Positions 14,358 through 48,884 of a stretch of 64,000 bases of DNA are shown in pieces. The translations under genes were made by a program, and so were the position numbers. Source of the DNA: Deltaproteobacteria bacterium GWA2_45_12. GTDB taxonomy: Bacteria; UBA10199. The notes below the pieces were generated by a model, which saw only the letters and a program-made list of their open reading frames with translations, searched no databases and was not told where the DNA came from. The stretch lies in NCBI GenBank assembly GCA_001797365.1, contig MGPH01000011.1:20402-84401 (forward strand), given 5' to 3'. Each line of letters opens with the position of its first letter. The first letter of the stretch is position 1.

Positions 14358-14681
14358 CTACATCACCGGATCCAACGCTCCCACAGGTTCAGGAGATTTA
14401 GAAGGAAGATAAACCAAAACGGGATCAATGGGTTCTATTGGTTTGGAATCCGTAGGGACAATCCTAGGATTGTCCCTACCCGCATCAGAATTATTTGTAG
14501 ATTCATTTGACACCGAAGGTTTGTAAGGCAAATCGTAAACCTGTTTGGAAGATGTGTCTTCAGTCTCACCTTCCAAAGAAGGCGGTGTTGTTTGCGGCCC
14601 CACGGGACCAAGGTCTTGGGCGTGAGCGACTCCATTTAAAAATAAAAGGAATGTTATAATTTTTAATATCGATTCATTCAT
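14358..14681 (-). CDS. small secreted hypothetical protein (REP-containing)
   Basis: Signal-peptide-like N-terminus MNESILKIITFLLFLNGVAHA. A family-C REP lies in frame inside it (encoding DNPRIVPT). Pro/Ser-rich. Confidence 0.35.
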   Translation of the reverse strand: MNESILKIITFLLFLNGVAHAQDLGPVGPQTTPPSLEGETEDTSSKQVYDLPYKPSVSNESTNNSDAGRDNPRIVPTDSKPIEPIDPVLVYLPSKSPEPVGALDPVM

Positions 14682-14720
14682 GACGGACCTGTCCCGGTAA
14701 GGGCAATTCATGAATTGCCC

Positions 14721-15818
14721 CTACGATTCCTGAAATATTTTCACATTCTCCAATTCCTTGGCCAAGCTTGGATCTTTCTCTTTTAGCTTGTTCCATTTAA
14801 CTTTGGCTTGAGCCCATTGCTTCTGGTCAAAATCAACAAGGATTTGATTATAGAGACCCCGAGCCTCTTCCGAATTAAGGGTGCTTACTTTCGCATAAGC
14901 ATTCTCCGCTTTTTCGTATTGCTTTAAATTACGATATAAATTGCCTTCGATCAGCCACAAATCACTTGAATCCCTTACCGCTCTTGCCTTATTTATCCAA
15001 AATAAGGCCCCGTTGGTATCATTGTTTTTGGCATAGACCATGGCTAGCTGCTTCATGAGCAATTCATTGTATCCCCCCATCTCCAAGGCTTTGCGGTAAG
15101 ACTCACTGGCTTCCACCAACAATCCCATTTTTTCATAACAAAAACCCAAATTATGCAGGACAAAAACATTCTCCTGTCCCATGGCACGCATTTTTTTATA
15201 AACTTCGATCGCTTGGGGATAATGGTGAAGATCGCGATACACGTTCCCCAAAAGCCCCAACACTTGCAGATTTGTGGGAGCATGCGCTATCCATTGGGCA
15301 AGATAATTCAAGGCCTGATCGTTCTTCCCTGCTTCCCTGGCCAAAATTGTTTTGGATTTAAGAGAATCAAGAGTTTCTTCAATTTTTATTTCAAAGCGGC
15401 GGCTTAATTCAGGTTGTGAAATAAGTTTTTTGGACCAGTCGGCATAATCACTTCTTAATCCTATCACATGAATCACTTCCCCTTGGGGGCCCTTGTTTTC
15501 AAAAACAACCCGATGGATAGTCAAAGCGGGAAACAAAATTCCTTCAGCCTCAAAAACCATTTTTCTTAAATCTTCTTCGGAAATCAAAGAGTCCTGCAAA
15601 ATTATTTTTGCTTCAAGCGGGAATAATTCAAAAACAAAGAGCCGGAACAATTTTGCTGCAAGATCCGTTTTTATTTTTTCATCGGATACCGTTTGAGGAG
15701 TTTCTTTTATCGGCTCTGCCTGTTTTTGATGTGTGTTTTGAGCTTCATCAAACCACCAATCTTGGAGACGGGCACACCCACAAAACCAAACAAAAAAAAG
15801 GATCCAAAACCATTTCAT
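14721..15818 (-). CDS. TPR-repeat lipoprotein
   Basis: Start at MKWFWILFFVWFCGCA (lipobox-like). Multiple TPR-like helices (AL.YL.QWIA, LG.VY..L..Y..A...Y). Confidence 0.6.
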   Translation of the reverse strand: MKWFWILFFVWFCGCARLQDWWFDEAQNTHQKQAEPIKETPQTVSDEKIKTDLAAKLFRLFVFELFPLEAKIILQDSLISEEDLRKMVFEAEGILFPALTIHRVVFENKGPQGEVIHVIGLRSDYADWSKKLISQPELSRRFEIKIEETLDSLKSKTILAREAGKNDQALNYLAQWIAHAPTNLQVLGLLGNVYRDLHHYPQAIEVYKKMRAMGQENVFVLHNLGFCYEKMGLLVEASESYRKALEMGGYNELLMKQLAMVYAKNNDTNGALFWINKARAVRDSSDLWLIEGNLYRNLKQYEKAENAYAKVSTLNSEEARGLYNQILVDFDQKQWAQAKVKWNKLKEKDPSLAKELENVKIFQES

Positions 15819-15987
15819 ATCTTTGTTTGTATACAGCACTTTTGCGTCCTTGCCAAATGGGGAGACAAACCCCCAATAAGTACCCCCCGAAGTCAAAAAA
15901 CCCCCAACCCCAGGCAAGCCAAGCTTCCTATAATAAAAAAATACTTAATAATTACATATATTTAGATTTGAATTCTCCCTAAGTTTT

Positions 15988-16003
15988 TGGCACTGGGTTT
16001 GCT
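15988..16003 (+). promoter_or_regulatory. sigma-54 (RpoN) -24/-12 promoter
   Basis: TGGCAC-TGGGT-TTGCT matches the TGGCAC-N5-TTGCW consensus. It lies ~50 nt upstream of the 16054 ATG, which has a strong RBS (AAAGGGGAA). Confidence 0.55.
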
Positions 16004-16053
16004 ATTAAACATAACGGACGCATGTATTTTTTTTAAAAAAAGGGGAATTTTTT

Positions 16054-18159
16054 ATGACGCAAGCCATCCACAATGATTCAAACAGAAACTCCGCCACTGA
16101 TTCCGACTACGCCCATACAGATTCTGCGCGTATCAAAAACCTGGGTACCGATGAAAAACGTGTGGCCCGAAGAGATGCCAGCCAGGATTTACGCACGGTA
16201 AACCGGGCCATCCGTGAATTAGAAAACAAGGATTCAGCCGACCAAGCCCGTCGTGAAGCGCTGGAAGAATTAAAAAAAGATATCGAGACTTTTCTTAACG
16301 AACTCACCGAAGCCACGCGTGCTGATCGGGAAAGTGAAAGTGGTGTGGACACATCGGAAGTGGACACAACCACCACCGAAGCTGAAGAAAAATATCCCGT
16401 GACTGTTGGCCCCAATGGGGAAATCGCCCAGGATTTTACCAATGGGGATGATATCCATGTAACAGCCGCTGATTCAACCGAAGACAGGACCTATATTTTA
16501 AATCCAGCCGATCCTGCCCCAGTGCCTGGAGAAGATCCCCAAGAAGCTCAAAAAACACTGGAGCAAAGACTTATTGATGATGGAGTAATTGATCCTGAAA
16601 CAAAGGAAGTGATTCAAGATGTAAATGGAGATGGCGTTCTTACCGAAGCTGACATCGAAGCATATAAAGCAAAAAACAGCCTTGATACAAATTCCAATCT
16701 CGAACAACGCCAAAAAATAACTTTTGATGGCGGTGGAAAAACCAAACTAAGTATTGCTTCCATTGATGAGGGAAATAAACAGCTAACGGTTCGAATTGAA
16801 AACCTTGAAACGGGAGTCATTACTTTTCAAACCATTGTCAATTATGACAAAGCTTCCATTATCTGGTCCAATGCCGAAGTGGATCGTGACGAATTATTGG
16901 CCCTTCCTGAAAATCTGAAAAAAATTATGTCCATTGATAACGGGGCGACCACCATTAGCGCCAATGTGGAAGAATCCGAAGGTGAAGGCAAAGAACTCGA
17001 TGTGACTCGTTCAAACGGCTACAAAGCAGCCACCTCTGATGCGGCCTTTGATGCAAGCCGAAACATGTGGACCATGGCCTCTCGTACAGATTTAAGACCC
17101 TATTGGAAGGAAGCCATTGAAATTTTCTACCAGTTTTACACAAACAATCCCAAGGGGGACTGGAAAAAAGAATTCACCGATAAAATACTGAAGAAATGGG
17201 ACGAAGCCGGTCTTTTGGGTGCCGATAGAAACAACCTTATCATTAGCATGGTGATGACCATGTTCCATTCCACTTCCAAGGAAGTGTTCAGCAGTTTTGC
17301 AGGACCCCTTGTTGAACTTTTTGAAAACCAACTCATGGCCGATTTTGAAGTAATTGATGGAAGAACCAACAAGGCTCAAAAGGACGCCCAAGGAAATATT
17401 GTCATGCGTCATTGGAAAGATCACGAGTCGGCAAGCTATAAAACCGTCATCCTGCTTCTGGAATATCAAACCGGTGGCGGGCAATTTGGGGGTGCCTTAG
17501 CCGCATACGAGCTATTCACCACCAATATTTTGGGCTCGGATGATCCGATCCATCCTGAATCTGAAATACAACGAGGTCGTTGGTGGGATACCCAAACCAA
17601 TAAAGCAGCCCTCGATAAATTTAAGAACTTGCTCAAGGAAAAAGGCAGCGAGATCCCTGACAGTATTAACAAGGTCAGTGCCATGGAAGACACCATGGCC
17701 AGTTCCGAAATGGTTGATTTTGACCAAAAAGACTACGAATCGGTTTACGAAAACCTTGACCTTTACGTCGCAAATTATTGCTGGGATAAAGATGATGTCG
17801 AAGACACAGTGGCCAGCGCCAACAATGAACAAATCGCAAAATTCCAGGAATACTATGAACCAAAAATAGATAGTCTCCTGCAGGCAATCATCACGGATGA
17901 ACCCATGCCCGCCGCCCATATTGTGGCCAAACTCGAAGCGGCCATGAGCGCTCTGGTTCAAACCGATGGAAAAACTTCTTTGGGCGTTCTGGCTGCCATG
18001 TTTTTAATTATTATGGATGGCTCAAAACCCCAAATACTGAACAGCCTAATGAAAGTCCCTGGCTTTAAGGAAGAAGTGAAAGGCTGGCTTGAGGGCTTTG
18101 ACAGTTCATATCAGTTCTACAACCCCGTCATGGAAATTTTAAACAGAAACTATCAATAA
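16054..18159 (+). CDS. large acidic hypothetical protein, paralog A1 (701 aa)
   Basis: No signal peptide or TM segment by eye. N-terminal coiled-coil/low-complexity region. Shares conserved blocks with the next ORF (IENLETGVITFQT vs FENIESGEVCFKT; KPQILNSLMKVPGF vs KPQFLNALLRIPSF). No recognised domains. Confidence 0.7.
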   Translation: MTQAIHNDSNRNSATDSDYAHTDSARIKNLGTDEKRVARRDASQDLRTVNRAIRELENKDSADQARREALEELKKDIETFLNELTEATRADRESESGVDTSEVDTTTTEAEEKYPVTVGPNGEIAQDFTNGDDIHVTAADSTEDRTYILNPADPAPVPGEDPQEAQKTLEQRLIDDGVIDPETKEVIQDVNGDGVLTEADIEAYKAKNSLDTNSNLEQRQKITFDGGGKTKLSIASIDEGNKQLTVRIENLETGVITFQTIVNYDKASIIWSNAEVDRDELLALPENLKKIMSIDNGATTISANVEESEGEGKELDVTRSNGYKAATSDAAFDASRNMWTMASRTDLRPYWKEAIEIFYQFYTNNPKGDWKKEFTDKILKKWDEAGLLGADRNNLIISMVMTMFHSTSKEVFSSFAGPLVELFENQLMADFEVIDGRTNKAQKDAQGNIVMRHWKDHESASYKTVILLLEYQTGGGQFGGALAAYELFTTNILGSDDPIHPESEIQRGRWWDTQTNKAALDKFKNLLKEKGSEIPDSINKVSAMEDTMASSEMVDFDQKDYESVYENLDLYVANYCWDKDDVEDTVASANNEQIAKFQEYYEPKIDSLLQAIITDEPMPAAHIVAKLEAAMSALVQTDGKTSLGVLAAMFLIIMDGSKPQILNSLMKVPGFKEEVKGWLEGFDSSYQFYNPVMEILNRNYQ

Positions 18160-18167
18160 AATAAATT

Positions 18168-20441
18168 ATGGGCATCGAAAATACATCCAACCGAAACGAA
18201 ACATTTAATGTCGACTATAAACAGGCCGACAGTATTGACCTGCAAGGAAAAACGCGTGAAGAATTACGTGCGGCCAAGCGTGAAGCCTTAAACGACAAAA
18301 AAGACCTTCAAAAATACAAGCGCGACTTGGAACGCTTGGAACACAATAGCGAAATTGAGCGCAAGATTGATGAAATTGAAAAAATAATTGCCGCCGATGA
18401 AGCCTTTTTGGAAGACTTGAATGCCGCCATTGACGGTTTGCGTAATGATAGTGAAAACTTGGGCGTTGACACAAGTACCGCCGAAAGCACCCCCGAAGCC
18501 CCACGCACCGATTATAAAGATGGATCCACAGCAAGCATTAACACCATGGGGGACCAAAATATCCAACTGCGCCCTTTTGCCACCAACCCCTTGCTGACAG
18601 AAAAATCGGATACAGATTATTTAAAAGAACGCGGCATTTTGGATGAAAACGGCCACCTCATGCCCGGCAAAACAGTCAAAGATTATGAAAATGCCCTTGA
18701 AACCCGCCGCTCGGATGAACAAACCCAGCTGCAAATGATCAATATTGCCTTCCCTCCAAAAAAATATACTGCTGAAGAACTGACTTTAGAAAATGCCGAA
18801 GCCGCCGTGAATGGGGACCGTCATTATATTGAGATGAGCTTGGCCAGTTATGATGCCGCAACGGGTGCCGTTACTTTTCGTTTTGAAAATATTGAATCGG
18901 GGGAAGTGTGTTTTAAAACTTTTGACAATCTCAAATATGCCTCCATCCTTGTAGACACCAATGCTGTAAAAATCAACAACAACCCCGGTGACCCTGAAGA
19001 AGTATGGAAAAAAGTGAGTGCCGGTGGAAAGCCGGTCATTGAAACAGCCTCTACGCTCACTTCCGATCAAAAACATGGTTTGTATGCCGGCTTTGATACG
19101 GCAACCAGTGATGCCAGTTTTGAAGAAGCTTTAAAACTGGGCATTAACGGCGGTCAAGACACCAGTGATGCAACAAAGGCCAAACTGAAGGATATCAGAA
19201 ACCAGGCTGTTGCCTTGATGATCGACTTTGCCAATGGAGATATTCCCGGCATCACCAACCTGGTTGACTTGTGGAATAAAAAGATAAAACCTTTAATGGA
19301 GGAAGCAGGACTTAATGCCTATGACCAAGGGCAGTTTGTCATTGTCTTATTTTACTCCATTTTCTTTAACAGCCCTTCTTACGCTCCCAAATTAAATGAA
19401 CTCGCTTCAATATTTGAAACCATCCTGACTGAAATACCGGCCAAAGAAGCAGACATCAACGCAAACGGATATCCTCTCCTTTTTGAAAACAGCCCTGAAA
19501 TAAAAACGGCCCTCCTGTTCATGAAAACGGGGCTTGGACAAACCGATTCTGATTTTGCTTATCTCTTTGGCCAATCGATGAAAGCCAAAGCCGATGCCCA
19601 AGGCACTGAATATGTGATGGGGCAATGGGAAAATCACGAAACCAATCTTTTAGCCATCAATGCTTATCTTAAAATCAAAAAAGAAAAGTTTTTGGAACAA
19701 CCCAGCGCCAATATGCAGGATGCCCTGACCATTGAAACCGCCATGATTAATGGCGGCGGAGACATCGGTTTGGCAGGAGACGAAAAACAGTACGCTCATG
19801 ATGCCTTAAGTTCCCAGCTAGACTACGCCCACGGAGAACTTAATGACCTCATGAGACAAATACTGGAACCCCTCCTTAAAAAAATCCTGGAAGGCAATTT
19901 AACAGCTTCCGAAATCACAAAATTAATCACAGAAGACTTGAAAAAAGTTCCTGACCTAACAACAGTGAAGGATCGCCGCGACAAAGGCCGGGAAGTGGAT
20001 TGTTCGGTAAATGGAGTGCGGAGGGCTGCTGCAGGAATCCTTTTGAAAGCCTTGTATGGCACCAAGCCCCAATTTTTGAATGCTTTGTTACGCATCCCCA
20101 GTTTTGTCCGTGATATTCAGGTAATATTAAGAACCGTTGAACCTTATGATAACGATTTACCCTTCGAACAAACTTTGGGTGGTAAAGTGGCTCCTGAAAT
20201 GATCAACATTATCCAGGCCCTTGTGCTGGAAAATAAACTGATTGAAGATTCACAAAGACGGGCCCGTACCGCCCTTGACCAAGAAGCCATGGACAAGGAA
20301 CGTGAGGAAGCTGCACGCCGCTCTCAGGAAAATATGGGCGGTTCCCAAACTCCTCCTCCTGAAGAAGCCCCACCCCCAGAACCACGTGGAGCCGAAGCCA
20401 TTGAAGGTGCCGAAGATGAGCGGGAAGCTGAAGGTCCTTGA
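18168..20441 (+). CDS. large acidic hypothetical protein, paralog A2 (757 aa)
   Basis: Paralog of A1. N-terminal coiled coil and a Glu/Pro-rich C-terminal tail. It starts 8 nt after the A1 stop. Confidence 0.7.
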   Translation: MGIENTSNRNETFNVDYKQADSIDLQGKTREELRAAKREALNDKKDLQKYKRDLERLEHNSEIERKIDEIEKIIAADEAFLEDLNAAIDGLRNDSENLGVDTSTAESTPEAPRTDYKDGSTASINTMGDQNIQLRPFATNPLLTEKSDTDYLKERGILDENGHLMPGKTVKDYENALETRRSDEQTQLQMINIAFPPKKYTAEELTLENAEAAVNGDRHYIEMSLASYDAATGAVTFRFENIESGEVCFKTFDNLKYASILVDTNAVKINNNPGDPEEVWKKVSAGGKPVIETASTLTSDQKHGLYAGFDTATSDASFEEALKLGINGGQDTSDATKAKLKDIRNQAVALMIDFANGDIPGITNLVDLWNKKIKPLMEEAGLNAYDQGQFVIVLFYSIFFNSPSYAPKLNELASIFETILTEIPAKEADINANGYPLLFENSPEIKTALLFMKTGLGQTDSDFAYLFGQSMKAKADAQGTEYVMGQWENHETNLLAINAYLKIKKEKFLEQPSANMQDALTIETAMINGGGDIGLAGDEKQYAHDALSSQLDYAHGELNDLMRQILEPLLKKILEGNLTASEITKLITEDLKKVPDLTTVKDRRDKGREVDCSVNGVRRAAAGILLKALYGTKPQFLNALLRIPSFVRDIQVILRTVEPYDNDLPFEQTLGGKVAPEMINIIQALVLENKLIEDSQRRARTALDQEAMDKEREEAARRSQENMGGSQTPPPEEAPPPEPRGAEAIEGAEDEREAEGP

Positions 20442-20517: not shown

Positions 20518-22599
20518 ATGAAAAGTTCCCTTTCTTCTTTATTCTCTCCTTTCATTATTTTTATCAGTCTTCTGACAGCGTGTGCTGAAGCTGTTGTTCC
20601 AACCCCTCCCCCCGCCCCTCCTACTTTAAATATTAGTGGGGAAGCTGTGAGTGACTACACTTTAAGTTTTGTAGCCCCTGATTTTAACGGAGAGGCCCCT
20701 TACTATAAACATACCGAAACCATCGTTTTAAGAAATATTGGGGAAGAAATCCTCACCATCAACAACATCACCATGGACGATTTTAGTGGAGCCAAATGCG
20801 AATTTTCTTTTAATCCTGATGTTAATGACGCTGATTCCGTCACACGATGTTCCAACCCACCCATTGACATGGGCCTACCTCAACATCTTGAAGCGGGACA
20901 ATCCATTGCGTTTGATGTGACCTACACCCAGGACAATTTCGGAAATTTCTCCACAAGCATTGTTATTGAAAGTAATGACCCTGATTTTCCTACTCAGACT
21001 ATTAATGTCACATCTGAAAATTCAGGGTTGGGACAGGCTGAAAGCCCCTTAAGAGCCGAAGAACCGGCACCCAGACAAGCCCACCCAAGAATGGTACTTA
21101 ATCACCATCAGCTTGACTTTGGACATGTTCTTGTAGGCAATCAAATTAACCAACTTGTTTGTATCTTCAACCGTGGGGAAGCTCCTTTAAATATACTAGG
21201 CATCAGATTTTTACCCGAAGGGGAAGGTGCCAACAATCAATATGAATTCCTCCATGTACATTGGATACCCTCTGTCATTCCAGCACCACAGGGATGGGGA
21301 TCTGGAAGATGTCCCATTGATATTCAATATCACCCCAATGTGGTAGGAAATCATAATACAGCCATCGAAATTGTCAGTGATGACCCCATCAATCCTTTGT
21401 TAAGACTTCCCATATTGGGAACCGGGGTCCGTGATAACCCGCAACCACCTCAACCTGCTCCTCAGATGTATGTTTATCCGAGACAAGTCTCTTTTGGAAA
21501 AATTGGCGTGGGTTGGACAAGAACTATTGAAATTACAATCCGCAATCAAGATGCTGGCGTTTTGAGTATACAAGAAATTAGCCTGGCACCAGCAGGTGAG
21601 GGAATTAACGAGCAATATGAACTCATCAATACCCCCGATGCCTGTCGTAATTTGGAAGAAGATAGCAGTGTTCGTTTCAGCATTCGATATCGGCCGCAAA
21701 TTGTTGGTGAGCACAATACTTCTCTTACCATTGTAAGTAATGACCCCTTGGGACAAAACTTTACCATCCCCGTTACAGGAAACGCGGACATTTGGCCGGA
21801 AATTTCTGTGAACACCCAACGCATCAATTTTGGCCATGTAACCCCTGGCAATGCAAGCGACCCTTATACTATTAGAATACGAAGTGACGGTCCCGGGCCC
21901 TTGACCTTACAAAATATAATCCTGACCGCCGAGGCACCAGCCCCCAACAACAACCAATATCAGCTTGATAATATTCCGCTGGAGTGGCCACTGATCCTTG
22001 CCCCTAGAACAGAGCTTGAATTAAACCTTACCTATCTTCCCCAGGTTTATGGAAGCCATAATACCTTCCTTGTCATTTCAAGTGATGATGAAAATGAAAG
22101 CACAATCAGAATCCCCATTTCGGGAAGTGCCAATGCCCGGGAAATTAGTGTTTCAACCGATCAAATTGACTTCGGCGAAGTAAACCAAGGGGCCAACTCA
22201 CCCATTCAAAACATTACCGTGCAAAATGAAGGGAATTTGCCACTCATCCTTCAGAATATCTCTCTTGCCCCGGCAGCTGATCCCATTAATAACCAGTACA
22301 CAATCCATAATATTCCTGCTGCATGGCCCGTTGTATTACCGGCTCACGGACAGCTCATCTTTGGCTTAAGCTATGATCCCGTCATCGTGGGAGAACATGT
22401 AACTTCCATTTCCATTTCAAGCAATGATATCGATGAGCCCATCATCAACATACCCGTCACAGGAACAAGTCGGATCCAAACCGGGCCATCCAAAGAAGAT
22501 CAGGAAAATGATGAACCTTCTAAAAAGCCACCCCCAGAAAAAACCAAACCTCCAAAAACGACTTACCCCCCAACAAACAAGGAAAAATCAAATGGATAA
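20518..22599 (+). CDS. lipoprotein with ~6 tandem Ig-like (ASH / choice-of-anchor-D / DUF1573-like) domains, paralog B1
   Basis: Signal/lipobox ISLLTAC, a PPPAPPTL linker, then repeated ~100-aa modules with the pattern FG.V..G......I.N.G..PL.I..I.L........QY.L.........L......Y.P...G.HNT.L.I.SND...P...IP.TG. Confidence 0.75.
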   Translation: MKSSLSSLFSPFIIFISLLTACAEAVVPTPPPAPPTLNISGEAVSDYTLSFVAPDFNGEAPYYKHTETIVLRNIGEEILTINNITMDDFSGAKCEFSFNPDVNDADSVTRCSNPPIDMGLPQHLEAGQSIAFDVTYTQDNFGNFSTSIVIESNDPDFPTQTINVTSENSGLGQAESPLRAEEPAPRQAHPRMVLNHHQLDFGHVLVGNQINQLVCIFNRGEAPLNILGIRFLPEGEGANNQYEFLHVHWIPSVIPAPQGWGSGRCPIDIQYHPNVVGNHNTAIEIVSDDPINPLLRLPILGTGVRDNPQPPQPAPQMYVYPRQVSFGKIGVGWTRTIEITIRNQDAGVLSIQEISLAPAGEGINEQYELINTPDACRNLEEDSSVRFSIRYRPQIVGEHNTSLTIVSNDPLGQNFTIPVTGNADIWPEISVNTQRINFGHVTPGNASDPYTIRIRSDGPGPLTLQNIILTAEAPAPNNNQYQLDNIPLEWPLILAPRTELELNLTYLPQVYGSHNTFLVISSDDENESTIRIPISGSANAREISVSTDQIDFGEVNQGANSPIQNITVQNEGNLPLILQNISLAPAADPINNQYTIHNIPAAWPVVLPAHGQLIFGLSYDPVIVGEHVTSISISSNDIDEPIINIPVTGTSRIQTGPSKEDQENDEPSKKPPPEKTKPPKTTYPPTNKEKSNG

Positions 22600-23542
22600 A
22601 AAACTTGAAAGAACCAAATTATTGTACACGAGCCTTTCTGCTCCCATGATTATCCTTCTCGGCTGTGCCTACGGTGTTTTACCCACCGGCTGTGCCGAAG
22701 CCGTTATACCCAATCCTCCTCCAGCGCCTCCTACTTTATCCATTCAGCCAAACAATCTGGTTTTCATAGCCCCTGATTTTAACGGAGAAGCTCCCTATTA
22801 CACACATACCGAATCCATTACTCTCAGAAATATTGGGGAAGAAGTCCTCACTATCACCAACATTACAATGGACGATTTAAGCGGAGCTACCTGCGGATTC
22901 TCTTTTGATGCCAATGTAAACAATGCCGATTCCCCCACGCGATGTTCAAACCCACCGCTCGACAGAAATTTTCCGATTGAACTTGAAGCCCAACAATCCA
23001 CTTCTCTTGATGTGACCTACACGCAAGACAATTACGGCAGCTTCAGTACAAGCATTGTTATCGAAAGTAATGACCCTGAGATCCGTACAAGCAGAATCAA
23101 TATTACATCCGAAAATTCAGGATTGGGACAGGCTGAAAATCCTTTAGTCCCAGCACCTGCCCCAGAAGCAGGGTCTCCCGAAATCACGGTATCTCCTTTA
23201 AGCATTGCCTTCGTATCCATACCAACAGGTCGTTCTGCCACGCGGATTGTTACCCTCCGTAACGAGGGAAACGGGCCGCTGCATATAAACAATATTGCGC
23301 TTGCGGCACCGGCGGCTCCTGCTGCCGATGGAAGCAATCAATATCAATTGGCGGGGCTTCCCCCATTTCCTTTTGAGCTTGCTGCCGGAGTGGGCATTGA
23401 ATATTCTTTTCAAATTAATTACCGACCCAATGCCGTGGGGAATCATCAAACCTCCATTGTCATTTCAAGTGATGATGTTGATGAAGCCACTGTCACAATT
23501 CCTGTCACGGGAAATGCAAGGATGAATACAGGGCCTCAGTAA
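22592..23542 (+). CDS. lipoprotein with tandem Ig-like domains, paralog B2
   Basis: Start ATG overlaps the B1 stop (ATGGATAA). Lipobox LLGCAYG. The first ~170 aa are ~75% identical to B1, indicating a recent duplication. Confidence 0.7.
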   Translation: MDKKLERTKLLYTSLSAPMIILLGCAYGVLPTGCAEAVIPNPPPAPPTLSIQPNNLVFIAPDFNGEAPYYTHTESITLRNIGEEVLTITNITMDDLSGATCGFSFDANVNNADSPTRCSNPPLDRNFPIELEAQQSTSLDVTYTQDNYGSFSTSIVIESNDPEIRTSRINITSENSGLGQAENPLVPAPAPEAGSPEITVSPLSIAFVSIPTGRSATRIVTLRNEGNGPLHINNIALAAPAAPAADGSNQYQLAGLPPFPFELAAGVGIEYSFQINYRPNAVGNHQTSIVISSDDVDEATVTIPVTGNARMNTGPQ

Positions 23543-25056: not shown

Positions 25057-25824
25057 TTAGTACATCACCTTCTTCAACACCAACCCATACGCCGGCGCGG
25101 TCATTCCGGCTTTTTTTCGGTCGCGGCTTTTGAGGATTTTTTGAATGTCTTTTTCGGTGAGTTTACCCCGGCCCACATCTACAAGAGTCCCCACCATGTT
25201 TCGCACCATGTGTTTTAAAAAGCCGGGGCCGGTGAAGGTGAGGGTGATGATGGCCCCACCCGTGCTGTATGGGCGAACACAAGGTTCGCCCGTACGGATC
25301 AAAATATTATCCACCCTCCTCACTGTCGTCTTTACATTGCTGTCAGAAGCACAAAAGGACTTGAAATCATGCCTGCCCACCAACACCTTGGCCGCACGCC
25401 TCATGGCAGGAATATTTAACGGATAAGGAACTCGCCAGGAATATTCGGTTAAAAAGGGGGAAGGGATGGATGAATTAAAAATGGTGTATTGATAAACTTT
25501 TTTCTTCACGGACCTTTGCGCATGAAAACTTGAAGGAACAATTTGAACTTTCAAAACAGAGATATCCGCGGGCAATGAGGAATTAAGCCCCATCAACAAA
25601 TTGATGGGCTTCATTGAAAAAGGCTCAACATCAAAATGGGCCACTTGGAAAAGCGCATGCACTCCGGCATCGGTACGGCCAGAAACATTGGTTATTATTT
25701 TTTTTTTGAAAATGGCGGAAAGTTTTTCTTCCAAAACAGATTGAACCGTGGGGCCCTGGGGTTGGACTTGCCAACCGAGATAGTTGGTTCCTTTGTATTG
25801 GAGGGTAAGTTTGATGCGTGGCAT
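25057..25824 (-). CDS. truA: tRNA pseudouridine(38-40) synthase
   Basis: KLTLQYKGTNYLGWQVQ and GRTDAGVHA catalytic Asp motif, plus HHMVRN-like FLKHMVRN. Contains an in-frame REP at 25266-25294. Confidence 0.8.
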   Translation of the reverse strand: MPRIKLTLQYKGTNYLGWQVQPQGPTVQSVLEEKLSAIFKKKIITNVSGRTDAGVHALFQVAHFDVEPFSMKPINLLMGLNSSLPADISVLKVQIVPSSFHAQRSVKKKVYQYTIFNSSIPSPFLTEYSWRVPYPLNIPAMRRAAKVLVGRHDFKSFCASDSNVKTTVRRVDNILIRTGEPCVRPYSTGGAIITLTFTGPGFLKHMVRNMVGTLVDVGRGKLTEKDIQKILKSRDRKKAGMTAPAYGLVLKKVMY

Positions 25825-25895
25825 GGGAGGTAGGGGCGCTGCTTGCTGCGCCCTTATTTATGGTACCGCCCCATAGGGCGCAGCAAGCGGCGCCC

Positions 25896-26909
25896 CTACG
25901 AAATCAATTTCTCCGCAATCTGCACGGCATTTAGTGCGGCGCCTTTCAAAATTTGGTCACCACAGACAAAAAGATTGATCCCGTTTTCAATCCATAAATC
26001 CTTGCGAATGCGGCCCACATAAACTTCGTCCTTGCCGGAAACGTCAACGGGCATGGGGAAATAATTTTCTTTGGGGGAATCCACCACCTTCACTCCCGGC
26101 ATTTTGGCCAGGGCCTGCCTTACTTTTTCAACGGAAACGGGTTTCCCCAATTCCAGATGAATGGCCTCGGCATGCGCCCTAAAAATGGGGACGCGCACGC
26201 AAGTTGGCGAGACAAGGATTTCCTTGTCATGAAAAATCTTGCGGGTTTCATGGACCACCTTCATTTCTTCCTGAGAATACCCTTCTTCGCCAACAGCAGA
26301 ATCATGGGAAAATAAGTTAAAGGCAATGGGATGTTTGAAAATAGCGCCCCTTGCAACGGGTTTTCCTTCCAGATAAGCACGGGTTTGGCTTTCCAACTCA
26401 TCAATGGCCTTGGCCCCGGCACCGGACACGGCCTGGTAGGTGGCAATGGTCATTCTTTTGATGGGGGCCAGGCAATGAATGGGCCATATCGCCATGGCCG
26501 CGATAATGGTGGTGCAGTTGGGGTTGGCAATAATCCCCTTATGCTTGGCTATATCTTCCGGATTGACTTCAGGCACCACCAAGGGAACATTGGGATCCAT
26601 ACGGTAGACACTTGAATTATCAACCACCACGGCTCCCGCCTTCACCGCAGATGGAGCAAATTCAAGGCTTCTGGCCCCTCCTGCAGAAAAAAGAGCGATA
26701 TCAATGTTTTTGAAAGAATCGTGGGTCAGCAGAGAAACGGGATATTCCTTCCCGCAGAATTTCATTTTTTTACCAACAGATTTTTTTGAAGCCAAAAGAC
26801 GTAATTCCCCGATGGGAAAATTTCTTTTGGCTAAAACACGTAAAAATTCTTCCCCCACCGCACCGGTCGCTCCGGCAATGGCAATGTTGTATTTGGATTT
26901 TTTTTGCAT
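25896..26909 (-). CDS. asd: aspartate-semialdehyde dehydrogenase
   Basis: NIAIAGATGAVG Rossmann N-terminus. 337 aa. Overall Asd architecture. Confidence 0.85.
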   Translation of the reverse strand: MQKKSKYNIAIAGATGAVGEEFLRVLAKRNFPIGELRLLASKKSVGKKMKFCGKEYPVSLLTHDSFKNIDIALFSAGGARSLEFAPSAVKAGAVVVDNSSVYRMDPNVPLVVPEVNPEDIAKHKGIIANPNCTTIIAAMAIWPIHCLAPIKRMTIATYQAVSGAGAKAIDELESQTRAYLEGKPVARGAIFKHPIAFNLFSHDSAVGEEGYSQEEMKVVHETRKIFHDKEILVSPTCVRVPIFRAHAEAIHLELGKPVSVEKVRQALAKMPGVKVVDSPKENYFPMPVDVSGKDEVYVGRIRKDLWIENGINLFVCGDQILKGAALNAVQIAEKLIS

Positions 26910-26938
26910 AATTCATCTACCCCCTCTAACTCCCCCTT

Positions 26939-27040
26939 ATCACCGCGTAGCGGGATTCCGTTTGCGGAACAAAGGGGGAGAGGCAACAAAAAATCTCCCC
27001 TCCTTTGTCCCGCGAAGCGGGATCCCGTTTGCGGGGTAAG
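26939..27040. repeat. REP family D cluster (CGGGGTCCCGTTTACGGGACGGGGCTCA type)
   Basis: Related units at 7262-7345, 10668-10700 and 11651-11690. Inverted GGGATCCCGTTTGCGGG arms. Confidence 0.75.
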
Positions 27041-27064
27041 GAGGGGTTAGGGGAGGTAGGGCCC

Positions 27065-28150
27065 CTACGTTATATTTTTGCAAATCACATCCCCCATCTC
27101 TTTGGTTCCCAACAATTTTGTTCCGGGGGTATAAATATCTCCTGTTCGATAGCCCTCATTTAAGACTTTCTTTACAGCCTCACGAATTTTGCCGCCGGCT
27201 TCCTTTTGTCCAAAGGAATATTCAAGCATCATGGCGGCCGATAAAATAGTGGCAATGGGGTTGGCCTTGTTCTGCCCGGCAATGTCGGGGGCCGAGCCAT
27301 GAATGGGTTCATACATCCCCTTGGAAGTTTCATTAAGTGAAGCGGAAGGAAGCATGCCAATGGAACCGGTAAGCATGGAAGCTTCATCACTTAAAATATC
27401 TCCAAACATGTTTTCAGTCAGGATCACATCAAACTGTTTGGGGTTGCGAATAAGTTGCATGGAACAATTATCTACATACATGTGTGAAAGTTCCACTTCA
27501 GGATAATCTTTATGCATTTGTGTGACCACTTTACGCCACAATTCGGTGCATTCAAGCACATTGGCTTTATCAATGGAACAAAGTTTTTTACGGCGCTTGG
27601 TGGCCAGCTCAAAAGCCACCTTGGCAATACGTTTGATTTCGCTGGTGGTGTAAACAAGAGTGTTGACCCCCTGCTCTTCACCATTGGGGAGCTTAGTCAC
27701 TCCGCGCGGTTTTCCAAAATAAGCACCGCCCGTCAGTTCACGCACGACCATCATGTCAATGCCTTCCACCACTTCACGCTTAAGTGTTGAAGCATCTAAA
27801 AGAGCATCAAAAATAACCGCGGGGCGCAAATTGGCAAACAGATTAAGCTCGGAGCGCAATCCCAACAATGCACGTTCCGGGCGAAGCGAATAATCAAGGG
27901 GTTCCCATTTAGGGCCCCCCACAGCCCCTAAAAGAACAGAGTCAGCCTGCTTGGCCAATTTTAAGGTAGCCGGGGGTAAAGGATGCCCTGTTTGGTCGTA
28001 AGCACAACCTCCCACAAGAGCCTCTTCAAAAGTAAATAAAAGGGAACTGGCCTTTTCAAGAACCTTTAAAACTTTCACGGCTTCCCGGGTGACTTCAACA
28101 CCAATTCCATCACCGGGAAGAACAGCAATTTTGTATGATTTGTTGGACAT
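27065..28150 (-). CDS. leuB: 3-isopropylmalate dehydrogenase
   Basis: Start at [17 protein letters not shown], with the isocitrate/isopropylmalate dehydrogenase signature. The track ORF (484 aa) is extended upstream through REPs and a small ORF, and is trimmed here to 362 aa. Confidence 0.85.
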
Positions 28151-28157
28151 AATTTCT

Positions 28158-28185
28158 GTAGGGACAATCCTAGGATTGTCCCTAC
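28158..28185. repeat. REP family C: palindrome GTAGGGACAATCCTAGGATTGTCCCTAC
   Basis: Copies at 14452-14479 (inside a small CDS) and 28519-28546 (variant). Confidence 0.9.
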
Positions 28186-28229
28186 GTACGGGCGTATCGT
28201 CATAGCGTACGGGCGGGGTAACCCCGCCC

Positions 28230-28514
28230 CTACGTTTTTTTAAAAAACGCCTCCAATTTTTTCCTGGCTTCAGAGACAGGATCCTGTTGTAGGGGCGCTG
28301 CTTGCTGCGCCCCCACGAAATATTCGCAAAAATTGAATTTTTCTTTATCCACCACACGATCAGCCTGGGGTTCACGGCATTCATTGTAGGCCGCACGATC
28401 ATAAAAACCGCAATTAAGACAAATGTGGGCATCCCGCCCACAATGGTCACACACGTCGCGGAAGCCGGGTTTTTCCGAAATCGTGTCTTCTTTTTTGCAG
28501 AAAAAACAAAACAT
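28230..28514 (-). CDS. small Cys-rich (zinc-ribbon-like) hypothetical protein
   Basis: 94 aa with CFFC..x..CDHC..x..CLNC..x..C pattern. Flanked by family-C REPs and contains a family-A REP in frame. Could be REP-generated noise. Confidence 0.3.
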
Positions 28515-28552
28515 ACCAACGTAGGGACAACCCTAGGGTTGTCCCTACAAAT

Positions 28553-30088
28553 TCAAACCCCTCTCCCATCTTTTTTTGTCTGATAATATTCCAGCCGATT
28601 TACAGCCACCAGAAAGGCCATGGCTGAGGCCACGATGATATCGGTGTGGGCCCCACTGCCCCTGACTGTTTTATCTCCTTCTGAAAGAGTCACCACCACT
28701 TCCCCTTGGGCATCGGTTTCACCGGTAATGGCCGTGACCACATATTTTTCCAAATTACCCTTAAACCCTGTAAGCGTGCGAATGGCCTTAAAAACGGAAT
28801 CCACAGGTCCACTGCCGCTTTCAACAACTTCCTTGGGCTTGCCATCAACAAACAAACTGACTTTGGCCTCGGGTTTTTCTTTGTTGCCGCTTTTGACCGA
28901 AAGAGAATCAAGAACATACTTCTGGTCTTTGAGTTCCACCTGGCCTTCAACCAGGGCAAAAATATCTTCGTCATAAACATTCTTTTTTCTGTCAGACAAA
29001 TCTTTAAACGCCTTGAAAGCAGCTTCAAGAGCGGCTCCCTCAAGGGGAATGCCCAAAGCTACCAACCGGTCGCGAAAGGCATGCCTTCCCGAATGTTTCC
29101 CCAACACAAGCTTGTTGCGCGGAATACCCACCGATTCAGGCCGCATGATTTCATAAGTCTGCTGAAATTTAAGAACGCCATCCTGATGGATACCCGATTC
29201 ATGAGCAAAGGCATTATCCCCCACAATGGCTTTATTGGGCTGCACACTAATGCCCGTAATAAACGACAACAATTTGGAAGAGGGATAAATCTGCTCCGTC
29301 TTGATGTTCGTCTTAAAGGGGAGGCTGTCCTGACGCACGTTCAAGGTCATCACAATTTCTTCCATGGAAGCATTACCGGCCCGTTCCCCAATCCCATTGA
29401 CGGTGCATTCCACCTGTCGGGCCCCGGCCTGAATGGCGGCCAGTGAATTAGCAACGGCCAAGCCAAGGTCATTATGGCAATGCACACTGATGCACACACC
29501 CTTGGGCATTTTAAGAACCGACTTCAAATAAGAAATAAGATCATAAAATTCGGAAGGAATGGTGTATCCCACCGTATCCGGCACATTTAAGGTTAACGCA
29601 CCATGGTCAATGGCCACCTGAAACATTTGGGCTAAATAAGCACGGTCGCTGCGGGTAGCGTCCATGGCTGAAAACTCGACATCGTTACAAAGTTTCTTGG
29701 CCAATTTGACGGCCATTTCCACATCATGCAACACTTCTTCCCGTGTTTTCTTCAGCTGATATTGCAAATGGATGTCCGAACTGGAAATGAAGGTGTGTAT
29801 TCTCTTTTTTTCAGCAGGCTCTAAAGCTTGGGCACAACGCTCGATATCCATTTTGTTGGCTCGTGCCAACCCGGCAATCATGGGGCCTTTTACTTCCAGG
29901 GCAATCCGGTTCACCGATTCAAAGTCCCCTTGGGAAACAATGGGGAAACCACCTTCAATAATGTCAATATTCAATTTGGCCAGCTGATGGGCCATGCGCA
30001 GCTTTTCATCGCCGTTCATGCTGCAGCCAGGTGACTGCTCGCCATCACGCAATGTCGTATCAAAAATTTTGACTATTTCTGGTTTCAT
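28553..30088 (-). CDS. leuA: 2-isopropylmalate synthase
   Basis: IFDTTLRDGEQSPG N-terminal HMGL-like motif. 511 aa with a LeuA dimerisation C-terminus. Confidence 0.85.
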   Translation of the reverse strand: MKPEIVKIFDTTLRDGEQSPGCSMNGDEKLRMAHQLAKLNIDIIEGGFPIVSQGDFESVNRIALEVKGPMIAGLARANKMDIERCAQALEPAEKKRIHTFISSSDIHLQYQLKKTREEVLHDVEMAVKLAKKLCNDVEFSAMDATRSDRAYLAQMFQVAIDHGALTLNVPDTVGYTIPSEFYDLISYLKSVLKMPKGVCISVHCHNDLGLAVANSLAAIQAGARQVECTVNGIGERAGNASMEEIVMTLNVRQDSLPFKTNIKTEQIYPSSKLLSFITGISVQPNKAIVGDNAFAHESGIHQDGVLKFQQTYEIMRPESVGIPRNKLVLGKHSGRHAFRDRLVALGIPLEGAALEAAFKAFKDLSDRKKNVYDEDIFALVEGQVELKDQKYVLDSLSVKSGNKEKPEAKVSLFVDGKPKEVVESGSGPVDSVFKAIRTLTGFKGNLEKYVVTAITGETDAQGEVVVTLSEGDKTVRGSGAHTDIIVASAMAFLVAVNRLEYYQTKKDGRGV

Positions 30089-30115
30089 AAATTACGGGCG
30101 CGGCAAGCGGCGCCC

Positions 30116-30943
30116 CTACTCTTTATCCACCACCTTCAATAACTGCCCCTTGTTTTTTTCCTTGTCTGCAATGACCAATTCATGGGGATCCGCCTGAAAA
30201 AAATGTTTCATAAAATCGGCAAATGAACGGATTTTTTTAACCCCTAAAAACATTCCTTTAAGGAGACCAAAAGAAACATAGAGCATCGAAAGTGTAAACA
30301 AGGTGACCTGGGGTTCAACGGCAATGACAAACAAAACCAATACCACCAACACCATCACAAAAAAATGCGCCCGCCTGTTAAATTCCAAAACTTTCAACCC
30401 CCGATAGGGGATATTGCTGACCATAAGCAACCCCACAAGGACTGTCAGCCCCAAAATAAAATAACCAGGAGGGGGCACGTCCCCATTCATGTACTGGTTA
30501 AACACAACGGCTGTCACAATGGTACTGGCCGCTCCCGGGCTTGGCAGCCCCTGGAAATGTTTTTTTTCAACACTGGTTGACTGCACATTAAACCGGGCCA
30601 GACGAAGGGCCCCACAAGCAAAATAGACAAAACAGGCCACCCAACCCACCTTATAAAATTCGTACAAGGACCATTTGTAAGCAAGTAAAGCCGGAGCCAG
30701 GGCAAACGAGGTCAAATCAACCAGGGAATCATATTCCAAACCAAAACCACTCTGGGTTTTGGTCATGCGGGCCACACGACCATCAAGCAAATCAAACACA
30801 CCCGCCAGCATAAGCACCCAGGCTGCTGTGACATAGTCACCATTGATGGTGCGAATAATGGCAAAAAAACCGCAAAACATGTTCGCGGTGGTAATAATGT
30901 TGGGCAATAAATAAATACCCTTTTTGATGCCTTGTCGTTGCAT
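30116..30943 (-). CDS. pssA: CDP-diacylglycerol--serine O-phosphatidyltransferase (CDP-alcohol phosphatidyltransferase family)
   Basis: LPNIITTANMFCGFFAI and D.LDG..AR motif. Adjacent to psd. Confidence 0.8.
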   Translation of the reverse strand: MQRQGIKKGIYLLPNIITTANMFCGFFAIIRTINGDYVTAAWVLMLAGVFDLLDGRVARMTKTQSGFGLEYDSLVDLTSFALAPALLAYKWSLYEFYKVGWVACFVYFACGALRLARFNVQSTSVEKKHFQGLPSPGAASTIVTAVVFNQYMNGDVPPPGYFILGLTVLVGLLMVSNIPYRGLKVLEFNRRAHFFVMVLVVLVLFVIAVEPQVTLFTLSMLYVSFGLLKGMFLGVKKIRSFADFMKHFFQADPHELVIADKEKNKGQLLKVVDKE

Positions 30944-31080
30944 AATTTTTTATCCCCTACGCTCGTTGGCTTCGGGGACGCGCCTTGCCGGGTCAAAACC
31001 CTCCGCCTTAGGCGGAGAATCTTCCAGGGCTTGCCCTGGGGTTCATACCGTTGATGGGCGCGGCAAGCGGCGCCCCTACA

Positions 31081-31725
31081 CTATTTTGATGCCAAAACCG
31101 TTTCCCCTGCTTTCACATTCTGTCCGATCGAAACTTTAACTTCGTAATGCATGGGAAAATAAACATCCATGCGGGATCCAAAACGGATCAACCCATAAAT
31201 AGCCCCGCCCTTTAAAACATCCCCTTCCTTGGCATAACAAACAATACGCCGGGCCAGCCACCCTGCAATCTGGATAAACAAAATTCTTTCACCCCCCTCA
31301 TTTCTCACAACCACGGCATTTTGCTCATTATCAAGGGAGGCTTTTTGGGCGTAAGCCGGGAAAAATTTCCCCTTGTTGTAACTTACTTTTTCCACCAACC
31401 CGGAAACAGGGGCCCGATTAACATGTACATTTGCGGGCGACATAAAAATACACACTCGTTTAACCCTGTCTTTTAAAAACCGGTCTTCTTGTACGGTATC
31501 AATGGAAAGTACTTTACCATCAGCCGGAACAACAAGGATACCATGCTCTTCCGGGCAAGCCCTTTTCGGGTTTCTGAAAAAAGAAACAACAAAAAGAGTT
31601 AATGCCAAAAAAAGAACAAACAAAATCGGATGAATCAACCACCCGACAAGGACCAAGCCAAATCCCAAGGCAATAAAAGGAAAGCCTTCACGGGCAATTA
31701 TATCTTTGTTGGTGGTTTGAAGCAT
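31081..31725 (-). CDS. psd: phosphatidylserine decarboxylase proenzyme (short form)
   Basis: 214 aa ending with an FGSRMD self-cleavage-type motif. Upstream of pssA. Confidence 0.8.
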   Translation of the reverse strand: MLQTTNKDIIAREGFPFIALGFGLVLVGWLIHPILFVLFLALTLFVVSFFRNPKRACPEEHGILVVPADGKVLSIDTVQEDRFLKDRVKRVCIFMSPANVHVNRAPVSGLVEKVSYNKGKFFPAYAQKASLDNEQNAVVVRNEGGERILFIQIAGWLARRIVCYAKEGDVLKGGAIYGLIRFGSRMDVYFPMHYEVKVSIGQNVKAGETVLASK

Positions 31726-31808
31726 TTATTTATTAAAGCGGAATACAGGAGTCAGTATTCAGTAGCCAGTAGTCAGAATTAAAAAAATTTCTCCTGACTC
31801 CTGACTTC

Positions 31809-32297
31809 TCAAAACTCCTCTTCCTTCCCCCTTGGGATACAAATATTCCCCGTTTGTGCAAAATCGAGAATGCCGTAGGGTTTGAGCAGATTAAGGGTCG
31901 ATCCTATTTTTTCTTCATCGCCCCTCACTTCAACGACGCAGTAGGTTTCTTCTACATCCAAAACTTCGCCCCCAATCGTTTCAACGGCTTTAATGACTTC
32001 ATTGCGGTTTGTTTCATTCAGTTTTACTTTGACCAATGCCAAAATCCGGTTGATGGCCCGCTCTGAAGTCATGTCACGCACTTTAATCACATTGACCAGC
32101 TTGCTTAACTGCTTGTTAATCTGGTCAATGACGGCATCATTACCGGAAGTCACAATGGTCATACGCGAAACATGGGGGTCGAGTGTTTCAGCCACCGTTA
32201 AACTTTGAATATTATACCCGCGACCTGAAAAAAGACCGGCAATGCGGGTAAGAACGCCAAATTCGTTTTCAACTAAAGCAGAAATTGTATGTTTCAT
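31809..32297 (-). CDS. ilvH: acetolactate synthase small (regulatory, ACT-domain) subunit
   Basis: HTISALVENEFGVLTRIAGLFSGRGYNI ACT motif typical of IlvH/IlvN. No large subunit gene adjacent. Confidence 0.75.
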   Translation of the reverse strand: MKHTISALVENEFGVLTRIAGLFSGRGYNIQSLTVAETLDPHVSRMTIVTSGNDAVIDQINKQLSKLVNVIKVRDMTSERAINRILALVKVKLNETNRNEVIKAVETIGGEVLDVEETYCVVEVRGDEEKIGSTLNLLKPYGILDFAQTGNICIPRGKEEEF

Positions 32298-47561: not shown

Positions 47562-47623
47562 AGGTGTTCAATGTAGGGGCAGGTCTATGACCTGCCCGAA
47601 TTATGAGCGGTATAAACCCGCCC

Positions 47624-48739: not shown

Positions 48740-48884
48740 AGGTGCTTCACAACAGCAATGCCCCTGTAGTAGGGGCGATCCTTGTGATCGCCCTCGATCC
48801 TTATGATCGCCCTAACGTAGGGACACGGCATGCCGTGCCTCTACACGGGGGCGAATACAAGATTCGCCCCTACATGATTTCAAA

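Follow-up and report, generated by a model that had tools for sequence, protein, structure and literature searches.

A fast-evolving tandem pair of acidic proteins with no detectable known domain in a deltaproteobacterial groundwater genome

The substrates of Gram-positive type VII secretion, namely the WXG100/Esx, PE/PPE and LXG proteins, are encoded by tandem paralogous genes, lack a signal peptide, have a predicted N-terminal hairpin followed by a variable C-terminal body, and co-evolve with their partners within a genome. Acidic, Cys-poor proteins without an N-terminal signal peptide and with a Ca2+-binding motif are known as RTX-type substrates of type I systems, while the translocators and effectors of type III systems combine a polar unstructured N-terminus and the lack of a Sec signal with tandem genes and a tetratricopeptide repeat (TPR) protein next door. 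Features of all three kinds (the Ca2+ motif in one subunit type) come together in two adjacent genes, here termed A1 and A2, in a 64,000-nt stretch of DNA (contig MGPH01000011.1, positions 20,402 to 84,401; hereafter the window) from Deltaproteobacteria bacterium GWA2_45_12, a groundwater metagenome-assembled genome (MAG). Together with the corresponding products B1 and B2 of a second genome, the A1 and A2 proteins form a family that, as judged by sequence alone, is new at the protein-family level, new meaning here that it could not be classified by any sequence method; the novelty is that of a family and not of a demonstrated mechanism.

The resemblance to type VII substrates is an analogy in layout only. 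None of the four proteins contains a W.G motif or a conserved LxG (a single, non-conserved LQG is present in A2), the Pfam models for WXG100/Esx, PE/PPE and LXG do not match them, and no FtsK/SpoIIIE-type EccC ATPase is encoded in the window or on the further contig sequence around it. GWA2_45_12 was, in addition, deposited as a deltaproteobacterium (Gram-negative), and type VII systems are not known from such bacteria. Unlike type I substrates, all four proteins lack GGxGxD nonapeptide repeats, their C-termini are not conserved, and no ABC transporter/membrane-fusion protein pair is adjacent; an MlaDEF-type set ∼31 kb from A1/A2 accounts for all ABC genes of the window. As to type III systems, no apparatus genes are found in ∼80 kb and A1 and A2 have no translocator-type transmembrane (TM) helices, while the TPR neighbor, with 398 residues and a lipoprotein leader, differs from the cytoplasmic chaperones of ∼160 residues and reaches 25 bits with the SycD/LcrH model against a cut-off of 104.8 bits. 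Every tested defining feature of the ESX/PE/PPE/LXG and type I substrates is absent, and these likenesses are analogies, not memberships. In contrast to coiled-coil cytoskeletal proteins (intermediate-filament-like, DivIVA-like), the four proteins have no long dominant heptad rod and, in contrast to P-loop NTPases such as the bacterial dynamin-like pairs, they have no conserved Walker A motif. One candidate for the latter, GHLMPGKT in A2 (18651-18674, aa 162-169), was rejected as a chance match, as B2 has GKLKAGLS and neither A1 nor B1 has such a sequence.

A1 (16054..18159, forward strand) encodes a protein of 701 residues with a pI of 4.50 and one Cys (hypothetical protein OGP10372.1 in GWA2_45_12 and HBF13496.1 in assembly GCA_003501025.1), and A2 (18168..20441, forward strand) encodes one of 757 residues with a pI of 4.67 and two Cys (OGP10373.1 and HBF13497.1, respectively); the locus does not differ between assemblies. 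Both are real genes and, on sequence grounds, firmly an ancient tandem paralog pair. A preliminary description of this DNA had placed both open reading frames (ORFs) at these positions and considered their products to be acidic paralogs related along their whole length in conserved blocks, and this is borne out, since every peptide string that it quoted is present in A1/A2, the quoted blocks fall within the alignment, and BLASTP aligns A1 4-688 with A2 2-666, which is nearly full length (E = 2e-22, 22% identity). Asp and Glu together make up 18.4% of A1 and 17.4% of A2. The start of each gene is the first start codon 3′ of an in-frame stop, which makes an upstream extension impossible, and therefore no signal peptide is concealed upstream; within A1 and A2 there is no signal peptide, lipobox or Tat motif, nor any hydrophobic segment of TM strength (top 19-mer Kyte-Doolittle mean of 1.3). 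The start of A2 lies 8 nt past the stop of A1 on the same strand and lacks an obvious Shine-Dalgarno sequence, from which translational coupling of A2 to A1 would follow. The presumed promoter and ribosome-binding region of A1 is the AT-rich intergenic region at 15918..16053 (forward strand), which separates it from a divergent TPR-lipoprotein gene and has a GGGG purine run ∼9 nt 5′ of the A1 ATG. Promoter and terminator scans around the pair gave results no better than shuffled sequence, and an Rfam scan of the locus found nothing.

The age of the duplication is revealed by the second genome, where B2 (database sequence P0004) is encoded on a 20-kb Logan contig, L006, with a GC content of 35.5%, compared to 45% in the window. 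The genes 3′ of B2, truA-asd-leuB-(95 aa)-leuA-pssA-psd-ilvN, match in order those at 25057..32297 of the window, and directly upstream of B2 there is another family member, B1 (L006:3-2081, 692 codons), such that the two pairs also agree in length (701/692 residues for A1/B1 and 757/697 for A2/B2). The orthologs A1-B1 (E = 1e-45, 25% identity) and A2-B2 (E = 3.5e-25, 23% identity) both score better than either within-genome paralog comparison, that of A1 with A2 given above and that of B1 with B2 (E = 3e-11, 22% identity), and subunit-specific marks discussed below fit this orthology, with a Ca2+-type loop in A1/B1 only and a GILDENG block in A2/B2 only. Because these are one-to-one orthologous pairs, the duplication is older than the split of the two lineages, in agreement with the old duplication previously proposed for A1 and A2 from their divergence. 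The retention of both copies, of their order and of the slot over such a long divergence argues for a non-redundant joint function. The Asd, LeuA and LeuB proteins of the two genomes are ∼70% identical and TruA ∼50%, and the A1/A2 family therefore diverges far faster than its housekeeping neighbors while keeping its reading frames and lengths, which is good evidence for functional genes under selection.

The N-terminal part of these proteins has evolved differently from the remainder, as seen from z-scores of local alignments versus shuffles. In the N-terminal 100 residues it is the paralogs that are more similar (z = 10.3 for A1-A2 and 9.9 for B1-B2, versus 3.8 and 2.2 for the orthologs A1-B1 and A2-B2), while over the remainder of the protein the orthologs are (z = 55.7 for A1-B1 and 33.1 for A2-B2, versus 27.9 for A1-A2 and 10.7 for B1-B2). 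Similarly, in the N-terminal region of a multiple alignment the paralogs are 31% identical versus 17% for the orthologs (Fisher p = 0.002-0.0065). Hence the N-terminal module evolves in concert within one genome, as would be expected if the hairpins predicted there pair with each other or if one shared co-evolving partner reads both. A recent conversion between the two genes at their 5′ termini was ruled out, since their first 300 nt show no extended DNA identity, and any conversion is therefore not recent.

The order of parts is predicted to be alike in A1 and A2, that is, a leader, a hairpin, a linker, a short helical segment, a beta domain and an all-alpha body of ∼400 residues. This comes from AF2 models that were built on alignments of only 2-3 sequences (mean pLDDT 45.8 for A1 and 50.5 for A2) and were used for secondary structure only, and from a heptad scan with a simple in-house script that is not a calibrated predictor. 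The N-terminal modules of A1 (aa 1-100, 16054..16353, forward strand) and A2 (aa 1-100, 18168..18467, forward strand) each comprise a polar leader of ∼20 residues with the common pattern I.N.SNRN....DY...DS and a predicted helical hairpin, with AF2 helices at 32-57 and 64-96 in A1 (pLDDT 58-81; heptad-like segments 38-100) and at 19-57 and 64-96 in A2 (heptad-like segments 30-108). In all four proteins the heptad-like segments are essentially within residues ∼20-108, and the short ones elsewhere (A1, B2) are not conserved between members. Hence, of the coiled-coil character initially ascribed to the two proteins, what survives is a helical, heptad-like stretch at ∼20-108, in the N-terminal seventh of each only, and not the rest of either chain. 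There follows an acidic, presumably disordered linker spanning 50-60 residues in both layouts, which in A1 is rich in Thr, Glu and Asp (aa 97-160, 16342..16533, forward strand) and has a pLDDT of 23-30, no secondary structure and a net charge of −10 to −11 per 50 residues.

The small beta-strand domain (∼70 residues) is predicted at aa 220-295 of A1 (16711..16938, forward strand; AF2 strands 220-272, pLDDT 51-71) and at aa 221-285 of A2 (18828..19022, forward strand; AF2 strands 221-285, pLDDT 57-79). It contains the best-conserved block of the family, [EN]N.E[TS]G....[FY]....N, in which N250, E252, G254 and N263 of A1 do not vary among the four proteins. The all-alpha C-terminal body, a low-confidence AF2 prediction in A1 (aa 313-700, 16990..18153, forward strand), holds the conserved blocks W.EAGL..D and G.KPQ.LN.L..P.F in that protein, and in A2 (aa 299-723, 19062..20336, forward strand) it would end in a long terminal helix not present in A1. 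The Glu/Pro-rich tail of A2 (aa 724-757, 20337..20438, forward strand) is predicted to be disordered and has no conserved counterpart in A1, B1 or B2. The block that distinguishes the A2-type subunit, L.ERGILDENGHLMPG (aa 152-167, 18621..18668, forward strand), is near-identical in B2 (LIEKGILDENGKLKAG), forms the most confident part of the A2 model (pLDDT 81-82) and, as GILDENGxLxxG, sits just before the alignment position of the Ca2+-type loop of A1/B1.

This loop, DVNGDGVLTEAD in A1 (aa 189-200, 16618..16653, forward strand), was found with a regular expression, is of the dockerin/EF-hand type and, like the block of A2/B2, falls in the short helical segment. A match to the strict pattern D.[DN].[DNG]G.[ILV]...[DE] is present once each in A1 (at 189) and B1 (at 172, DYNNDGRINSKD), at the same alignment position, and in neither A2 nor B2. 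As in type I dockerins and EF-hands (PF00404, PF13202), the A1 and B1 sequences have a 12-residue loop, D-x-N-x-D-G-x-[IV]-x-x-x-D, with a helix after it, and isolated 47-residue segments score 21.9 bits (A1, E = 2e-4) and 16.5 bits (B1, E = 0.0098) against the Dockerin_1 cut-off of 22.9, with weaker EF-hand matches as well. The conservation of this sub-threshold loop suggests that the A1-type subunit may bind Ca2+. It does not make A1 a dockerin, which consists of two duplicated segments of ∼22 residues, whereas A1 and B1 each have one canonical loop that, as 12 of ∼700 residues, is no basis for classifying the protein. The window annotation contains no cohesin-domain protein, and we know of no cohesin-like partner for the A1-type loop.

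That the proteins have no recognisable domains, as previously described, was upheld by all searches against known families. With A1, A2, B1 and B2, the best Pfam-A matches reach 14-19 bits against cut-offs of 22-27, and NCBIfam gives nothing relevant at or near threshold; for A1/A2, PADLOC returns zero matches and PHROGs only noise (E ≥ 0.048). A four-sequence profile run against all PDB sequences matched only coiled-coil noise (best E = 0.26), and Foldseek searches of the PDB with the low-confidence AF2 models of A1 and A2 gave a best E of 0.42, which is uninformative given the quality of the models. Thus, no known domain is detectable in A1/A2 at the sequence level, and this conclusion is firm. 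No literature was found on proteins of this organism or on a functional link to the choice-of-anchor-D proteins encoded next to the pair.

The family is also extremely rare. In an exhaustive HMMER search of 1.84 billion cluster representatives, equivalent to ∼15 billion proteins, an A1+A2 profile retrieved three sequences, a fragment of A1, a fragment of A2, and P0004, a genuine distant relative (697 aa, E = 2.3e-8) that is the B2 of the second genome. Neither 185,579 species genomes nor JGI metagenome contigs (scanned twice) nor viral contigs yielded an additional member in pattern scans, and word-seeded homology searches with A1, A2 and a three-sequence profile, within a limit of 8000 candidates that low-complexity words filled up, gave nothing or only A2 itself. 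The two fragments are chimeric. P0002, the database representative of the 90% cluster of A1, is a 299-residue fragment from a 2.4-kb ENA contig in which an unrelated stretch is joined to A1 residues ∼1-255 at their C-terminal end, and P0003 is a comparable chimera with the first ∼102 residues of A2; the word-seeded search with A1 missed even A1 because its cluster is represented by such a fragment. A family HMM run over 2411 ORFs of 80 truA loci from GTDB species genomes matched only the family's own members. The closest truA product in that collection is just 46% identical to that of the window, and the lineage itself is therefore hardly represented in it. Hence, the rarity of the A1/A2 family is at least partly a sampling effect, although as far as sequences go it is firmly a fast-evolving family of one lineage only.

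A superficially similar gene pair was found at the truA loci of two other lineages. C1 and C2 (L008 10871-12418 and 12614-14311, both reverse strand), from the MAG 'bacterium STL-UBA1', are tandem acidic paralogs (pI 4.5-4.7) without a signal peptide that converge on truA where B1/B2 sit, and the Deltaproteobacteria MAG SJ577 has this kind of pair at its truA as well (L007 3101-3931, reverse strand); both MAGs have ∼62% GC. The gross order of a polar N-terminus, helices, a low-complexity linker (here Gly/Gln/Pro-rich), a beta-rich middle and a helical C-terminus is also alike, and a VTDPATGTQAVYFVHNYD strand recalls IENLETGVITFQTIVNYD. The two C1/C2-type copies are 75% identical to each other. 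The genes around them are otherwise not syntenic with the A1/A2 locus. C1/C2/D as a diverged A1/A2 homolog was rejected, with BLASTP E > 0.05, an hmmsearch score below 0 and an hhalign probability of 0.25%, and the likeness is probably a coincidence.

The window, together with ∼18 kb past its ends, consists almost entirely of housekeeping genes, which include trpE/G, ispD/F, cysS, tyrS, trpS, scpA/B, zapA, truA, asd, leuA/B, pssA and psd, as well as rpsB-tsf-pyrH-frr, dxr, rseP, leuS, prkA and mlaDEF. No secretion-system gene was found from about −26 kb to +52 kb (∼80 kb) or in 14 kb of L006, and the adjacency of homologs to secretion systems that had been raised earlier was not seen, the pair lying in a conserved housekeeping block in both genomes. 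The GC content of A1/A2 (0.44-0.45) equals that of the surroundings. The immediate neighbors of the pair are envelope proteins. On one side these are the divergent 398-residue TPR protein with its lipoprotein-type N-terminus (FCGC; 14721..15917, reverse strand), at the equivalent site of which the L006 contig ends, and a 117-residue Pro-rich secreted protein (14358-14711, reverse strand). On the other side are three choice-of-anchor-D/ASH-type Ig-repeat proteins (20518-22599, 22592-23542 and 23677-25047, forward strand) identified by Pfam/NCBIfam matches, two with a lipobox and one with a signal peptide, which are absent from L006, where B2 abuts truA directly. The first two are tandem duplicates (50% identical, E = 4e-82) that are near-identical over their N-terminal ∼170 residues, and their genes overlap by 8 nt, the ORF of the second beginning at 22424 and the lipobox-bearing called gene at 22592. 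Pro/Glu/Lys-rich low-complexity sequence recurs in the 117-residue protein and in the C-terminal tails of both the first Ig-repeat lipoprotein (KKPPPEKTKPPKTTYPP) and A2 (TPPPEEAPPPEP).

Further away are a three-gene PrkA/DUF444/SpoVR-like operon (46056-50963, reverse strand), a widespread and conserved set whose function is debated, and another pair of envelope or surface genes encoding an acidic lipoprotein with 3.7% Cys and a weak thrombospondin type-3 repeat match (57619-58347) and a 1050-residue secreted protein with faint PKD matches (58429-61581). Past window position 64000 and beyond the phosphoenolpyruvate carboxykinase gene there is a prophage-like or mobile segment (L087 1-7431) that contains an S24 repressor, HTH regulators, a YqaJ exonuclease, a protein with a phage replication-organiser N-domain, an IstB-like ATPase and a YhcG/DUF1016 nuclease.

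What A1 and A2 might do together can be outlined as follows. The two proteins would be co-expressed and form a hetero-oligomer in which the N-terminal module, leader plus heptad hairpin, joins A1 to A2, for example in a four-helix bundle, or presents both to a shared partner. The acidic disordered linker would tether a globular body, made up of the small beta domain and the helical domain of ∼400 residues, that bears the subunit-specific function, to which the A1-type subunit would add its dockerin/EF-hand-type Ca2+ loop. With less confidence, the complex would be located at or outside the envelope, which it would reach without a Sec signal, and would be structural or adhesive rather than an enzyme. 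Taken as a whole, this is the best explanation that we can offer, and we do so tentatively. A joint action of A1 and A2, in the simplest case as a hetero-oligomer linked through the N-terminal hairpins, seems on balance probable because both copies are kept in order, the 8-nt spacing suggests coupled translation and the N-termini evolve in concert. That the complex employs Ca2+ and works at the envelope or outside it is speculative, and we would sooner doubt it than assert it; it is suggested by the acidity of the proteins, the dockerin-type loop, their fast evolution, the envelope-protein neighbors and a depletion of Cys. A1 and B1 each have one Cys, A2 has two and B2 has none, and the three in A1 and A2 compare with 13.7 expected from the mean of 0.94% in the other window proteins (Poisson P = 6e-4). 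Such depletion is typical of proteins that are exported unfolded or reside outside the cell, and extracellular proteins are also where dockerin-type loops are usually seen. From these features, then, we infer the assembly into a hetero-oligomer, the part played by the hairpin, the binding of Ca2+ and the cellular location.

Several observations weigh against this picture of a hairpin-joined complex at the envelope. The Ca2+ loop is one motif scoring below threshold, which the A2-type subunit does not have, and the Cys signal is weak as several plainly cytoplasmic proteins encoded in the window, such as ScpA and Frr, are also free of Cys. The absence of the Ig-repeat trio from the L006 locus means that it is no obligate partner of A1/A2. 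The N-terminal similarity of the paralogs could instead stem from an old gene conversion between the tandem copies, and B1 begins 2 nt from the end of its contig and so may miss a few N-terminal residues. The low AF2 confidence leaves the domain layout as a sketch at the level of secondary structure. Finally, since signal peptides, lipoboxes, Tat motifs and TM segments are all missing from the proteins and ∼80 kb hold no secretion apparatus, a cytoplasmic location is at least as parsimonious. The proteins may then be a scaffold or adaptor that dimerizes via the N-terminal coiled-coil hairpins, organises the pole or division site, the chromosome or envelope biogenesis, and is never exported, which is nearly as likely as a site at the envelope and likewise doubtful. 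The high Glu, Asp, Lys and helix content is that of soluble cytoplasmic proteins, the housekeeping genes around the locus include scpA, scpB and zapA, and an acidic disordered linker combined with oligomerisation helices recalls, by analogy, what is generally known of polar-hub proteins. However, the heptad-like sequence extends over only ∼80 residues without a long rod, Cys is depleted, a dockerin-type Ca2+ loop is unusual for a protein of the cytoplasm, divergence is very fast compared to the neighbors, and core cell-biology scaffolds are usually found in more than two genomes.

Less probable still is that A1 and A2 are cargo of a type I, III, IV or VI system encoded elsewhere, whether as effectors, as toxins or as translocator-like proteins, with the N-terminal module as a secretion or chaperone signal, which we consider improbable. 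The polar, Ser/Thr/Asn-rich N-termini without a Sec signal, the acidic pI, the few Cys and the fast evolution would suit such proteins, and an N-terminal module that is concerted between otherwise diverged proteins is expected of two cargoes of one machine. Nevertheless, there is no secretion-system gene in the ∼80 kb here nor in the 14 kb of L006, and no RTX GGxGxD repeats, WxG, translocator-type TM helices or toxin or enzyme domain; the adjacent TPR protein, with its lipoprotein leader, is unlike cytoplasmic class II chaperones, and the fixed syntenic slot and host-like GC are not those of an island. Another reading, to which we give very little credence, is that proteins of the A1/A2 type are substrates or building blocks of a route for Sec-independent export or surface assembly that has so far escaped notice in a deep-branching, barely sampled 'deltaproteobacterial' lineage, in which the leader-plus-hairpin would be the shared recognition or pairing module, the pair a Gram-negative functional analogue of ESX-type substrates and C1/C2 an extremely diverged counterpart. 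An origin as mobile-element, phage-derived or anti-phage defence cargo is highly improbable. Such settings often harbor orphan tandem genes that evolve fast, and the prophage-like segment past the window end, with its YqaJ, phage replication protein and S24 repressor, is ∼45 kb away, but PADLOC is at zero, PHROGs at noise and the viral-contig scan negative, the GC equals that of the surroundings, the same slot is occupied in a genome with ∼70%-identical housekeeping proteins, and no integrase, transposase or repeat boundary is adjacent. Least of all are A1 and A2 likely to be spurious or decaying ORFs, for which one might cite the lack of a known domain and of a clear Shine-Dalgarno sequence for A2. 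This is effectively refuted by 701 and 757 uninterrupted codons, matched by 692 and 697 in L006 in the same order despite ∼75% amino-acid divergence, and by blocks conserved in all four proteins, a pattern that requires purifying selection.

Poorly sampled lineages commonly have orphan families, and the lack of homologs among 15 billion proteins can merely reflect an under-sampled lineage. The present value of the A1/A2 family is therefore modest, and lies in a well-delimited new family of four proteins in two genomes, with conserved blocks and clear domain boundaries, that yields testable heterodimer and Ca2+ hypotheses. If a Ca2+-dependent, Sec-independent complex at the envelope or surface proves true, it would represent a cell-surface system specific to a lineage of groundwater bacteria without cultured relatives, and would provide a clean case of an N-terminal module that co-evolves between two subunits.

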